From Escherichia coli (lineage in GTDB: Bacteria; Pseudomonadota; Gammaproteobacteria; Enterobacterales; Enterobacteriaceae): a stretch of 64,000 nt of DNA. Positions 9,716 through 43,107 of the stretch are shown here, one piece after another. The position numbers and the translations under genes are program-made. Every line of letters begins with the position of its first letter. Positions within the stretch are counted from its first letter, which is position 1. The notes below the pieces were generated by a model. The model saw only the letters and a program-made list of their open reading frames with translations, ran no database searches and had not been told where the DNA came from. The DNA lies in assembly GCF_965641715.1 (NCBI RefSeq), contig NZ_OZ282453.1. One strand, 5' to 3'.

Positions 9716-12106
9716 ATGGCAATTAACAATACAGGCTCGCGACGATTACTCGTCACGCTAACAGCCCTTTTTGCAGCGCTTTGCGGGCTGTATCTACTCA
9801 TTGGCGGAGGCTGGCTGGTCGCGATTGGCGGCTCCTGGTACTACCCTATCGCTGGCCTTGTGATGCTCGGCGTCGCCTGGATGCTGTGGCGCAGTAAACG
9901 CGCCGCGCTTTGGCTATACGCAGCCCTGCTGCTCGGCACCATGATTTGGGGCGTCTGGGAAGTTGGTTTCGACTTCTGGGCGCTGACTCCGCGCAGCGAT
10001 ATTCTGGTCTTCTTCGGCATCTGGCTGATCCTGCCGTTTGTCTGGCGTCGCCTGGTCATTCCTGCCAGCGGCGCAGTTGCTGCACTGGTGGTGGCACTGC
10101 TGATTAGCGGTGGTATCCTGACCTGGGCAGGATTTAACGATCCGCAGGAAATCAACGGCACCTTAAGCGCCGATGCCACACCTGCTGAAGCTATCTCCCC
10201 CGTTGCCGATCAGGACTGGCCTGCCTATGGTCGTAATCAGGAAGGTCAACGCTTTTCACCTCTGAAACAAATTAACGCCGATAACGTCCATAATCTGAAA
10301 GAAGCCTGGGTGTTCCGTACTGGCGATGTGAAGCAGCCGAACGATCCGGGCGAAATCACCAATGAAGTGACGCCGATTAAAGTGGGCGACACCCTTTACC
10401 TGTGTACCGCTCACCAGCGCCTGTTTGCGCTCGATGCCGCCAGCGGCAAAGAGAAATGGCATTACGATCCTGAGCTGAAAACTAACGAGTCTTTCCAGCA
10501 CGTAACCTGCCGTGGCGTCTCTTATCATGAAGCCAAAGCAGAAACGGCTTCGCCGGAAGTGATGGCGGATTGCCCGCGTCGTATCATTCTTCCGGTCAAT
10601 GATGGTCGACTGATTGCGATTAACGCTGAAAACGGCAAACTGTGCGAAACCTTCGCCAATAAAGGCGTGCTCAATCTGCAAAGCAATATGCCAGACACCA
10701 AACCGGGTCTGTATGAACCGACTTCGCCACCGATTATCACCGATAAAACCATCGTGATGGCAGGTTCAGTTACCGATAACTTCTCAACCCGCGAAACGTC
10801 TGGCGTGATCCGTGGTTTTGATGTCAACACCGGGGAGCTGCTGTGGGCTTTTGATCCGGGCGCGAAAGATCCGAACGCAATCCCGTCTGACGAACACACC
10901 TTTACCTTTAACTCGCCAAACTCGTGGGCACCAGCGGCCTATGACGCGAAGCTGGATCTGGTGTATCTGCCGATGGGCGTGACCACGCCGGATATCTGGG
11001 GCGGTAACCGCACACCGGAACAGGAACGTTATGCCAGCTCGATTCTGGCGCTGAATGCCACAACCGGGAAATTGGCGTGGAGCTACCAGACCGTTCACCA
11101 CGACCTGTGGGATATGGATCTTCCGGCACAGCCGACGCTGGCGGACATCACCGTTAATGGTCAGAAAGTGCCAGTTATTTACGCTCCGGCGAAAACCGGC
11201 AACATTTTTGTGCTCGATCGTCGTAATGGCGAACTGGTGGTTCCGGCACCGGAAAAACCAGTTCCCCAAGGTGCTGCCAAAGGCGATTACGTTACCCCTA
11301 CTCAACCATTCTCGGAACTGAGCTTCCGTCCGACGAAAGATTTGAGCGGTGCGGATATGTGGGGAGCCACCATGTTTGACCAACTGGTGTGCCGCGTGAT
11401 GTTCCACCAGATGCGCTATGAAGGCATTTTCACGCCGCCATCTGAACAGGGCACGCTGGTCTTCCCGGGTAACCTGGGAATGTTTGAATGGGGCGGGATT
11501 TCCGTTGATCCAAATCGTGAAGTGGCGATTGCCAACCCAATGGCACTGCCGTTTGTTTCGAAACTGATCCCACGCGGTCCGGGTAACCCGATGGAGCAGC
11601 CGAAAGATGCCAAAGGCACGGGTACGGAATCCGGCATTCAGCCACAGTACGGCGTACCGTATGGTGTCACGCTCAACCCGTTCCTCTCACCATTTGGTCT
11701 GCCATGTAAACAGCCAGCATGGGGTTATATCTCGGCGCTGGATCTGAAAACTAATGAAGTGGTATGGAAGAAACGTATTGGTACGCCGCAGGACAGTATG
11801 CCGTTCCCGATGCCTGTACCGGTGCCGTTCAATATGGGTATGCCGATGCTGGGCGGGCCAATCTCCACGGCGGGTAACGTGCTGTTTATCGCCGCTACGG
11901 CAGATAACTACCTGCGCGCTTACAACATGAGCAACGGTGAAAAACTGTGGCAGGGTCGTTTACCAGCGGGTGGTCAGGCGACGCCAATGACCTATGAAGT
12001 GAATGGTAAGCAGTATGTGGTGATCTCCGCAGGCGGTCACGGTTCATTTGGTACGAAGATGGGCGACTATATTGTAGCTTATGCCCTGCCGGATGATGTG
12101 AATTAA
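9716..12106 (+). CDS. gcd: Membrane-bound PQQ-dependent glucose dehydrogenase
   Basis: 796 aa from MAINNTGSRR...; N-terminal transmembrane helices followed by a PQQ beta-propeller domain. Confidence 0.93.
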   Translation: MAINNTGSRRLLVTLTALFAALCGLYLLIGGGWLVAIGGSWYYPIAGLVMLGVAWMLWRSKRAALWLYAALLLGTMIWGVWEVGFDFWALTPRSDILVFFGIWLILPFVWRRLVIPASGAVAALVVALLISGGILTWAGFNDPQEINGTLSADATPAEAISPVADQDWPAYGRNQEGQRFSPLKQINADNVHNLKEAWVFRTGDVKQPNDPGEITNEVTPIKVGDTLYLCTAHQRLFALDAASGKEKWHYDPELKTNESFQHVTCRGVSYHEAKAETASPEVMADCPRRIILPVNDGRLIAINAENGKLCETFANKGVLNLQSNMPDTKPGLYEPTSPPIITDKTIVMAGSVTDNFSTRETSGVIRGFDVNTGELLWAFDPGAKDPNAIPSDEHTFTFNSPNSWAPAAYDAKLDLVYLPMGVTTPDIWGGNRTPEQERYASSILALNATTGKLAWSYQTVHHDLWDMDLPAQPTLADITVNGQKVPVIYAPAKTGNIFVLDRRNGELVVPAPEKPVPQGAAKGDYVTPTQPFSELSFRPTKDLSGADMWGATMFDQLVCRVMFHQMRYEGIFTPPSEQGTLVFPGNLGMFEWGGISVDPNREVAIANPMALPFVSKLIPRGPGNPMEQPKDAKGTGTESGIQPQYGVPYGVTLNPFLSPFGLPCKQPAWGYISALDLKTNEVVWKKRIGTPQDSMPFPMPVPVPFNMGMPMLGGPISTAGNVLFIAATADNYLRAYNMSNGEKLWQGRLPAGGQATPMTYEVNGKQYVVISAGGHGSFGTKMGDYIVAYALPDDVN

Positions 12107-12144
12107 GATTTGCTCATATTGCTGTCAAAGTGCGCTTTGTTCAT

Positions 12145-12242
12145 GCCGGATGCGGCGTGAACGCCTTATCCGGCCTACAAAACCCTTCAAATTCAATAAA
12201 TTGAAGAGTTAACGTAGGCCTGATAAGCGTAGCGCATCAGGC
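12145..12242. repeat. BIME: two REP palindromic units in inverted orientation
   Basis: gccggatgcggcgtgaacgccttatccggcctac (12145-12178) and gtaggcctgataagcgtagcgcatcaggc (12214-12242) match the E. coli REP consensus. Confidence 0.85.
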
Positions 12243-12259
12243 AATTTCGTATTTATCAT

Positions 12260-12778
12260 TTACTCATCCGAAAATTTCAGCGACAGGAGTGCATTTTTCA
12301 TTAGTGTCTGATACTGCGTAACGGCATTTTCAGGCATAGAAACCTCCCCCGTGAGCAGCTTACCGTCCCGCGATGTAATCAACCTTAAATTATTGACTTT
12401 CCCTGGTATCAAACTATATGAAAGCAGCCATGCTTTATGCCCATCCACCACCACTTCTTCAGCCTGGGGAGCAGAATTTTTCAGGGAGTTAAGCGTTATT
12501 TCCTTGAATCTATCCAGGTGCTCGGCAGGCAAAGACTGATGCCATTGCGTAATATTAAGATGTACCCGTTTTACTTCATCGTAATAATTTGCCTGTGGTT
12601 CCTGGGGCTGTTGCAGTGTCGCTGCCATTTCCTCTGACATAACATGAAGATTTTCGGGGATTGCGATACTCAATTTAAAGTTTGGGAGAGACTGGCTTTT
12701 CAGCTTTATGTCGGCGTTAGCATTCGCAACCATAAACGAAAGCAGAAACGTCAGAATCAGATGTCGAAACGTAATCAT
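12260..12778 (-). CDS. Hypothetical secreted protein (172-aa precursor, Sec signal peptide with predicted cleavage after ANA)
   Basis: ORF with start MITFRHLILTFLLSFMVANANA preceded by an AAGGGA RBS-like motif; cysteine-free mature part, no recognisable motif; same strand as and 178 bp downstream of cueO. Confidence 0.55.
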   Translation of the reverse strand: MITFRHLILTFLLSFMVANANADIKLKSQSLPNFKLSIAIPENLHVMSEEMAATLQQPQEPQANYYDEVKRVHLNITQWHQSLPAEHLDRFKEITLNSLKNSAPQAEEVVVDGHKAWLLSYSLIPGKVNNLRLITSRDGKLLTGEVSMPENAVTQYQTLMKNALLSLKFSDE

Positions 12779-12956
12779 AAATTTCCCTTTTTGATTATTG
12801 TGGTGGTGCCTGCAAGGTATTACGACACAAAACACGTAATCAGGTGCCCCAGCATTCCATTGTGTTTGCCCAGTTTATGCTTTTCAGACTTATAATCTCT
12901 CACCTGAGACTATTTTTAAGAATTTCGCCTGTATTACAAAATACAGGCGTCGCACG

Positions 12957-14510
12957 TTATACAGTGGTAAACCCTAACATCATCCCCGTATCTTCATGCT
13001 CCAGCAGATGGCAGTGCGCCATATAAGCATGTTCTTTCGGTGCGTCGTGATTAAACTTCACCAGCACTTCACTGACATTGCCTTCTACCTTAACGGTATC
13101 TTTCCAGCCCGCGCGATGAGCCGCTGGCGGTTTGCCATTTTCTGATAAGATACGGAACTGCGTGCCGTGAATATGGAACGGATGCAGCATCATGTCGCCC
13201 ACGCCAGAGATAACCCAACGTTCGTACTGCCCTTTCGCCGCCGCAAACATCGGCTTATTCATATCAAACGCCTGACCGTTGATTTTATTGGCATGGTGGA
13301 AATCGAACTTCCCGCTGTGGTTCATATGATTCATATTGCCGTGCCCCATATGGCCCATCATCTGGCTGTGATCCATTCCGGCCATCGCCTGATCGCCATA
13401 TTTCTCCATTAGCATCTGCATCCCCATCATATCGAGCATCGGGTCCATAGAAAGTTGCAGCTTGCGTACCGTCAGCCCTTCCAGCGAAGGTAACGCAGGC
13501 AGGCTACTTAATGTGTCTGGCAAAGCACCGGAGGCACTAATAGCAATCGGCTGAATCCGCATTACCGGATGCGGCTTGTCAAACGGTGCAATCGCCATCC
13601 CCATCTGGCTGACCGGCAGCGTCACCAGGTCAAAGGGTTTGTTGTCGTTAACCTCCACCAACACTTCAAAACGCTCGCCCATCAGCACCGGCAGCTCGTT
13701 CACCTTCACCGGTTCAGGTAGCAGACCACCGTCGCTGGCAATCACATAAAGCGGGCGATTGTCGCTGGTGGCGAAATTGAGCGAGCGGGCATTACAGCCA
13801 TTGAGCAAACGCAGGCGCAGCCAACCACGCGGGGCAGCGTGTTGCGGGTAGATTGCACCGTTGGTCAGCAACGTATCGCCAAACCAGCCCACGGCGGCGG
13901 TCATCACATCCAGTTGATAATCAATCTGCCCGTCGGCGCTAAATTTCTTATCCTGAACGATCACCGGAACATCATCGATACCCCACTGTTTTGGCAGCAT
14001 TAATTTCAGGATCTCGTCATCTTCAATCACCACCAGACCAGCCAGCCCCATCGCCACCTGTCGCCCGGTCTTGCCATGTTGATGTGGATGGAACCAGCAG
14101 GTAGCGGCAGGTTGATCAACGTTCAAAGTCACCGAGCGCTTGCCACCTGGCGGAATAATTCCCTGTGGGCCGCCGTCGACTTCACCCGGTACTTCCAGCC
14201 CGTGCCAGTGCAACGTCGTCTCTTCCGTCAGTTGGTTATAGATATCAACCGTTACCGCTTTGCCGCGCTGTAATTTCACCGCCGGCCCCAGCAGATTGCC
14301 GTTATAGCCCCAGGTAGTTGCAGTTTTCTCGCCAAAGGTAGACTGACCTGCGCCAATAGTTAACTGAATGCGATTACGGGCATCGGTCGTGAGCAAATCA
14401 GGGATCGGTAACGTTGGGCGTTCCGCCGCAAAGACTGCACGGCTCCACAGTGGCAAGGCTGAAGCCACACCCAGTGCGACGGAATATTTCAAGAAATCAC
14501 GACGTTGCAT
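12957..14510 (-). CDS. cueO: Multicopper oxidase CueO (Tat-secreted)
   Basis: Twin-arginine signal [10 protein letters not shown]; copper-ligand motifs HWHG and [13 protein letters not shown]; Met-rich insert. Confidence 0.95.
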
Positions 14511-16805: not shown

Positions 16806-16810
16806 CGGCT

Positions 16811-16836
16811 CTGGCGGAGCTCCCAGGCTCCGCCAG
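16811..16836. terminator. Hairpin ctggcggagc-tcccag-gctccgccag between the convergent speD and yacL genes (bidirectional terminator)
   Basis: Perfect 10-bp inverted repeat followed by ATTTATTT. Confidence 0.6.
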
Positions 16837-16842
16837 ATTTAT

Positions 16843-43048: not shown

Positions 43049-43067
43049 TGTCTTAAACCTATAAAAA

Positions 43068-43087
43068 AGGCGCAGAATCCTGCGCCT
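43068..43087 (-). terminator. Intrinsic terminator after secA (stem aggcgcag / ctgcgcct with TTTTTT on the minus strand)
   Basis: Hairpin plus U-tract 20 nt after the secA stop. Confidence 0.6.
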
Positions 43088-43107
43088 TTTACTTCAACAG
43101 TTAGCTT

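Follow-up and report, generated by a model that had tools for sequence, protein, structure and literature searches.

The window analysed here, a stretch of 64,000 nucleotides of Escherichia coli DNA, carries the multicopper oxidase gene cueO on its minus strand (12957..14510), as placed by the RefSeq record of strain 33F4, which is 98.9% identical and whose gene annotation we mapped onto the window. BLAST break-points against K-12, refined by alignment, delimit a variable segment of 707 bp at 12260..12966: homology to K-12 ends at 12259/12260 and at 12966/12967, and between these points the segment stands in place of 55 bp of the K-12 cueO-gcd spacer. It contains the last cueO codons, a palindrome (12926..12949), a 178-nt spacer and an ORF of 172 amino acids (12260..12778, minus strand). 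Both flanks are E. coli DNA and match a K-12 derivative at about 98% identity. The comparison with the K-12 cueO 3' flank that had been called for when the palindrome was first noticed thus assigns it to the inserted segment; the replaced 55 bp of K-12 hold a different hairpin, ATGCCCGGAGAGATCCGGGCAT. Between the ORF and gcd lies a REP pair, or BIME (12139..12250), recognised by alignment and by Rfam (ES036 above its gathering score, naRNA4 below threshold). This BIME is also present in K-12, marks the left edge of homology and belongs to a type with about 39 similar sites in each E. coli genome.

A rare form of the spacer between cueO and gcd, with probable exchange through recombination

Among 5,426 complete E. 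coli genomes, the segment is present in only three, all of them from one Swiss farm. It is common to Pseudocitrobacter and E. whittamii at the same locus, and the gene order in Pseudocitrobacter is also the same (cueO, then the ORF, convergent with gcd). Compared with Pseudocitrobacter, identity is 91-98% across the segment, as against 60-85% for most of cueO and 76-93% for gcd; in an Escherichia locus that is 94% identical overall, the segment reaches 98-100%. These comparisons suggest that the segment has moved between lineages through homologous recombination at a fixed chromosomal site.

CueO terminates in ...GFTTV* here and in ...GFTV*, one codon shorter, in K-12. When we compared cueO 3' ends (window 12957-12966 and loci L013, L018, L019, L032 and L034 of the set of related loci described below), the extra C-terminal residue (GFTTV*, GFTSA* or GFTTA*) was present in a subset of loci with a similar 3' flank, with GFTV* found elsewhere, which places the recombination boundary inside the last cueO codons. 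Searches of plasmid and phage collections with the 707-bp segment returned no match, and we therefore dropped the idea that it originated from a mobile element. The palindrome as a mobile-element end or integron attC site was rejected as well: there is no duplication at the K-12 junctions, no GTTRRRY core adjoins the palindrome, and the chromosomal site is one and the same in every genus. A metagenome scan with the conserved 20-mer AAATTCTTAAAAATAGTCTC retrieved seven unrelated AT-rich contigs and no new homologues. All in all, the segment is a rare allele of the cueO-gcd spacer, and it has probably been exchanged through homologous recombination.

The extra ORF encodes a predicted PsbP-like protein

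The 172-aa ORF, annotated as hypothetical in 33F4, shares the strand of cueO and comes after it, and its translation begins with a signal-peptide-like N-terminus. None of the Pfam and NCBIfam models reaches its cutoff with this protein, and a sequence profile search of the PDB came back empty. A confident AlphaFold2 model (pLDDT 83.5) matches the folds of PsbP, CyanoP and DcrB in Foldseek, the top match being CyanoP 2xb3 (E 1.6e-7). The product is predicted to be a secreted or periplasmic protein with a PsbP/DcrB/Mog1-like fold.

A word-indexed protein search found two clusters only, and wider relatives were collected with tblastn on the loci and with a profile search, which returned 710 cluster representatives. 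Homologues sit directly after cueO in E. whittamii (89.5% identity) and, at 36-43% identity, in Klebsiella, Citrobacter, Kluyvera and another Enterobacteriaceae lineage, and the gene is also found in Pseudocitrobacter; the family shares the invariant motif VDGHK.W. Among our loci the PsbP-like gene is present in L003, L013, L020, L022, L032, L034, L040, L041, L047, L073 and L086. The copy in Kluyvera genomosp. 3 (L041 2735-3249) is recovered by tblastn as two overlapping pieces, suggesting a frameshifted pseudogene. In two Citrobacter genomes (L018 2802-3074, minus strand, and L019) a 90-aa PQ-loop (SemiSWEET-type) gene, oriented the other way, stands in place of the PsbP-like gene.

A perfect palindrome directly after the cueO stop codon

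At 12926-12949 the window reads CGCCTGTATT-ACAA-AATACAGGCG (that is, CGCCTGTATTACAAAATACAGGCG), which bears out the original prediction of a perfect inverted repeat with 10-bp arms; the loop is 4 nt long. In the sense of cueO, on the minus strand, the corresponding RNA is CGCCUGUAUU-UUGU-AAUACAGGCG. The cueO stop codon TAA occupies 12957-12959 on that strand, so that 7 nt intervene and the palindrome begins at the 8th nucleotide beyond the stop, in keeping with the distance of 8 nt originally given. When folded, the 24-mer yields -14.1 and -13.7 kcal/mol for the two strands (z = -6.5 and -7.2), and none of 200 shuffled sequences was as stable. Note that the G+C-rich part of the stem is confined to its lower half, the upper half being AT-rich.

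Perfect stems of at least 10 bp with loops of 3-8 nt are over-represented in the window, with 8 matches (5 distinct sites) compared with a mean of 0.63 in Markov simulations. The palindrome itself is single-copy within the window, even when 3 mismatches are permitted. It is real and non-random. Another perfect hairpin, of 11 bp and without a U-tract on either strand, is found at 957-983, between a fimbrial-protein ORF (92-934) and a PanB-sized ORF (1070-1864).

The palindrome is neither a canonical terminator nor a REP element

In its placement the palindrome resembles an intrinsic terminator, a stem-loop of 10 bp and -14.1 kcal/mol lying just downstream of a gene, 7 nt past the stop. The U-tract that should directly follow the stem is missing, however. 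The tails beyond the stem are AAATTCTT in cueO sense and TCGCACGT on the plus strand, with a U-tract on neither, and the tail after the stem, AAAUUCUU, opens with AAA. Using a hairpin/T-tail score of the d'Aubenton-Carafa type (our own implementation), we obtained -50 for the palindrome in sense and -44 in antisense orientation, whereas the canonical terminators of the same window that served as positive controls, at 16810-16837, 22199-22225 and 43065-43090, score between +14 and +35. One of these is unidirectional and comes after a speD-sized ORF, and the remaining two, with A- and T-tracts on each side, are bidirectional. Furthermore, a terminator scan does not call the palindrome hairpin. 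Given the missing U-tract, the scan and the scores, we reject a canonical intrinsic terminator, and the original description of the palindrome as not a textbook example of one holds.

With no U-tract behind the hairpin, real termination there is doubtful and would at best be weak or leaky. Rho-dependent termination is not an obvious substitute, since the spacer after the hairpin (A54 C25 G31 T37) is not C-rich. Published Term-seq tables for K-12 list no cueO-sense 3' end.

The geometry of the palindrome, an extragenic hairpin without a U-tract, would fit that of REP elements if it is transcribed together with cueO. Yet REP elements have many dispersed copies per genome and the palindrome is found at one place per genome, in 3 of 5,426 E. 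coli genomes. It is also unlike the consensus GCCGGATG...CCGGC seen in the neighbouring BIME, and Rfam reports no match at the hairpin even at a permissive threshold. A REP element or other repeat was rejected on these grounds.

Promoter-like elements between the palindrome and the ORF

The original prediction had also drawn attention to an exact TATAAT on the plus strand (12891..12896), with TTGCCC (12866..12871) about 19 nt upstream as a possible -35, and had raised the prospect of a promoter directed against cueO. Both hexamers are located where they were said to be. Exact TATAAT is scarce in the window, with three copies on both strands combined (one at 9667, a short way upstream of gcd, the others at 12891 and 16137) compared with 18.8 expected from shuffled sequence, and AT-rich imported DNA often has spurious promoters. 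One might envisage an antisense RNA initiated near 12903, with the hairpin at its 5' end, that extends antisense into cueO. Although the hexamer at 12891 is a perfect match to a sigma-70 -10, the remainder of the promoter is poor: TTGCCC matches the -35 consensus at 4 of 6 positions and stands at a 19-nt spacing, hexamers at 16-18 nt are worse still, there is no extended -10, and a promoter scan of 12000-13100 predicted 0 promoters. Related loci do not preserve these elements either. TATAAT is replaced by TATGAT in four other E. coli loci, by TATAAC in E. whittamii and by GATAAC in Pseudocitrobacter, with changes in the -35 as well. On the plus strand, moreover, no terminator follows the hairpin. 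We regard such an antisense RNA as highly improbable, and the promoter proposed for it finds no support here as a conserved element, even if low-level spurious initiation at TATAAT may occur in the carrier strain.

What is conserved in this region lies on the other strand. A -10-like hexamer, TAAACT in the window (12872..12877, minus strand), is found in all ten ORF loci compared (TATACT in 7, TAAACT in 2, TAAATT in 1) and marks a putative promoter of the ORF. The TATACT form resembles a sigma-S-type -10. Further upstream, beginning 4 nt past the hairpin, lies the motif TTCTTAAAAATAG (12910..12922, minus strand), whose core TCT(T/G)AAA precedes the hexamer by 42-44 nt in seven loci belonging to five genera; besides the window, both elements are seen in L003, L013, L020, L022, L034 and L073. 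The three Kluyvera loci are without the upstream motif. There is no -35 in this region, and on the basis of sequence the TTCTTAAAAATAG motif may be a UP-like or activator element. The ORF consequently appears to have a promoter of its own, which would depend on a UP element or an activator. The plus-strand signals can be read against this background: read on the minus strand, TTGCCC is the GGGCAA that comes directly after TAAACT, and TATAAT falls in the spacer of the putative promoter. As far as sequence comparison can tell, TATAAT is a non-conserved accident inside another promoter-like region.

Two further observations concern the putative 5' leader of the ORF and its surroundings. A 40-bp block (12812-12851, minus strand) is present in Escherichia carriers and missing in Pseudocitrobacter (L003), and its edges are marked by short TGC(T/A)GG repeats. 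A second hairpin that could span the TATAAT region (AUAGUCUC...GAGAUUAU) is not kept in E. whittamii or Pseudocitrobacter and was discarded.

Might the palindrome instead act as DNA, with a dimeric regulator bound to it and controlling the downstream ORF's promoter? The dyad is perfect and has its centre about 72 nt ahead of the start that the conserved TAAACT would predict, and TGTAT-N6-ATACA has the half-site spacing of the CRP consensus. However, that predicted start is uncertain, and the match to CRP is confined to 3 of 5 positions per half-site, with the key second G missing, so that a CRP site was rejected on sequence. A LexA (SOS) box was rejected on spacing, the palindrome reading CTGT-N10-ACAG and the box consensus being CTGT-N8-ACAG. 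More generally, an operator should hold its half-sites at a fixed spacing, whereas the loop is 4, 3 or 6 nt long among homologues, substitutions affect both half-sites together, and other genera have unrelated, GC-rich hairpins in its place. No regulator gene is found within the segment. An operator or activator site is accordingly very unlikely in our estimation.

Hairpins or REP elements follow cueO in nearly all Enterobacteriaceae compared

To put the palindrome in context we assembled related loci by scanning for the CueO C-terminus in one genome per species, which gave 80 Enterobacteriaceae loci. All 12 loci with the extra ORF have a hairpin of -11 to -25 kcal/mol that starts 2-10 nt past the cueO stop (median 6.5 nt). 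Apart from that of K. oxytoca, these hairpins have no U-tract, and their sequences differ between genera. Of the 68 loci that lack the ORF, most have a hairpin or REP near the stop, too, at a median offset of 10.5 nt and with a median dG of -18, the 8-nt tail after the hairpin containing a median of 2 T. Nearly all of the 80 species, then, have unrelated hairpins or REP elements adjoining the stop, usually with no U-tract, and the palindrome of the window, at -14 kcal/mol, is weaker than most of its equivalents.

Where the hairpin can be aligned, changes in the stem can be followed pair by pair. In E. whittamii, pair 5 of the stem has changed from U-A to C-G, the sole compensatory pair in the consensus fold of the spacer, pair 1 has changed from C-G to U-G and the loop has 3 rather than 4 nt, while the 7-nt stretch between stop and stem is wholly different. 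In Pseudocitrobacter only the two terminal pairs are lost. The two Citrobacter genomes with the PQ-loop gene retain the CGCC/GGCG base of the stem and the AAAyTC...AAAAT flank, with pairs 5, 7 and 9 altered on both sides; given how short these flanks are, the two hairpins can be called probable homologues of the palindrome. Structure rather than sequence has been kept, the stem being preserved via compensatory changes as the length of the loop varies. The Klebsiella equivalents contain G-U pairs; their predicted stability is -20 kcal/mol on the cueO-sense RNA and -11 to -12 in antisense, a difference of 8-10 kcal/mol. In a locus from a Citrobacter MAG (L022) 7 nt still separate the hairpin from the stop while the promoter-like elements are 81 nt away, which ties the hairpin to cueO. 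On the other hand, the distance between hairpin and hexamer is 47-55 nt in 9 of 10 loci, a constancy that leaves room for a promoter-linked role.

Could the palindrome simply have no selected function and be a neutral passenger of the 707-bp segment, for example the remnant of a decayed terminator or a REP-like element of the donor? It occurs solely with the segment, and since its carriers are few and closely related, conservation is weak evidence. The spacer as a whole is about 90% conserved among carriers, so that part of the stem's conservation is owed to recent common descent. A formal covariation test on the three distinct, close sequences fell short of significance, with 153 of 500 shuffles scoring at least as high, and the case for the hairpin therefore rests on the combined pattern. 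Against neutrality, changes within the stem are either compensatory or terminal although the 7 nt upstream of it in E. whittamii have been completely replaced, and about 80 species have unrelated hairpins in this position. We consider a neutral passenger unlikely.

Proximity to the stop codon opens up another scenario. A hairpin less than 16 nt past the stop might hinder the terminating ribosome and lower CueO through stalling and mRNA cleavage; alternatively, the ribosome might melt the hairpin, in which case read-through would depend on cueO translation. The 7-nt offset is within the 15-nt limit for REP-mediated stalling given in the passage of PMC12306157 that cites Liang et al. 2015. Most cueO orthologues likewise have a hairpin or REP no more than 15 nt from the stop, both with the ORF and without it. 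With the hairpin starting this close, it may in addition, or instead, interfere with the ribosome as it terminates. The published effect concerns REP elements, though, which are a different sequence, and the palindrome has an AT-rich upper stem and is less stable than most of its equivalents. As the principal explanation we find this scenario quite unlikely; it could also coexist with the one we favour.

A proposed stem-loop at the end of the cueO message

Of the roles originally entertained for the palindrome, an element of the cueO 3' end fits best, and those of antisense RNA and operator are much less likely. With confidence a little above even, we propose that the palindrome is an RNA stem-loop that ends the cueO transcript, serving as a weak attenuator and exonuclease barrier that would both set and stabilise the 3' end and keep cueO apart from the transcription unit that follows. 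The palindrome would act as RNA rather than as DNA. Transcription of cueO along the minus strand would produce a 10-bp stem-loop from the 8th nucleotide past the stop, which would define and protect the 3' end of the mRNA. Having no U-tract, the hairpin should be at best a weak, leaky terminator or attenuator, and by analogy with REP hairpins its main role would likely be that of a barrier to 3'-to-5' exonucleases. It would also set cueO apart from the PsbP-like gene, whose own apparent promoter sits about 50 nt further on. We infer hairpin formation in vivo, a role in stabilising or ending the transcript, and separate transcription of the ORF.

A bolder version of this idea can be formulated. 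The stop-proximal hairpin may be a regulatory device that is maintained across the Enterobacteriaceae and repeatedly replaced, REPs included, and that tunes CueO by interference between ribosome and hairpin and, in lineages where the PsbP-like gene is retained, insulates the promoter of that gene (with its TATACT-type -10, possibly stress-dependent) from copper-induced transcription of cueO. We give this version a slim chance; if true, it would hint at a functional pairing of CueO and the PsbP-like protein.

Whatever the fate of these proposals, comparison of related loci can resolve a feature such as "palindrome plus TATAAT" that was spotted by eye. More noteworthy, as by-products of this comparison, are the rare gene for a PsbP-like protein next to cueO and the conserved promoter-like elements that go with it: besides E. 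whittamii, no fewer than five other genera (Pseudocitrobacter, Klebsiella, Citrobacter, Kluyvera and another Enterobacteriaceae lineage) have this uncharacterised protein with a predicted PsbP fold encoded beside the copper oxidase gene.

Comparison with known 3'-end structures

How does the palindrome compare with better-known elements? It shares with intrinsic terminators a stem-loop directly past the stop and a fairly stable stem (-14 kcal/mol), but terminators have a U-tract where the palindrome is followed by AAA, and its score is far lower. Its positional counterpart in the K-12 spacer, the hairpin ATGCCCGGAGAGATCCGGGCAT, is also without a U-tract (score -30 and -18), but is unrelated in sequence and lies 19 nt from the stop. 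In K-12, a Rho termination region has been mapped to 138442 on the minus strand, antisense to cueO (Adams et al. 2021, PMC7815308, supplementary file 2). This position is about 190 nt inside the 3' end of cueO, which implies that gcd-sense transcription reads through the spacer hairpin and the BIME.

The closest parallel we can draw is with the stem-loops that REP elements form in 3' UTRs. Published work summarised in PMC12306157 has U-less REP hairpins attenuating transcription and blocking exonucleases, and the same summary, citing Liang et al. 2015, links REP elements at 15 nt or less from the stop to ribosome stalling. Like these, the palindrome is a stable extragenic hairpin without a U-tract, no more than 15 nt from a stop codon, in a spacer between convergent genes; REP elements proper occupy the same position after cueO in many other Enterobacteriaceae. 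Unlike the REP family, which is repeated and has the consensus GCCGGATG..., the palindrome is single-copy and its upper stem is AT-rich. It would thus be one more U-less 3'-end hairpin of the type known to shape the ends of enterobacterial mRNAs.
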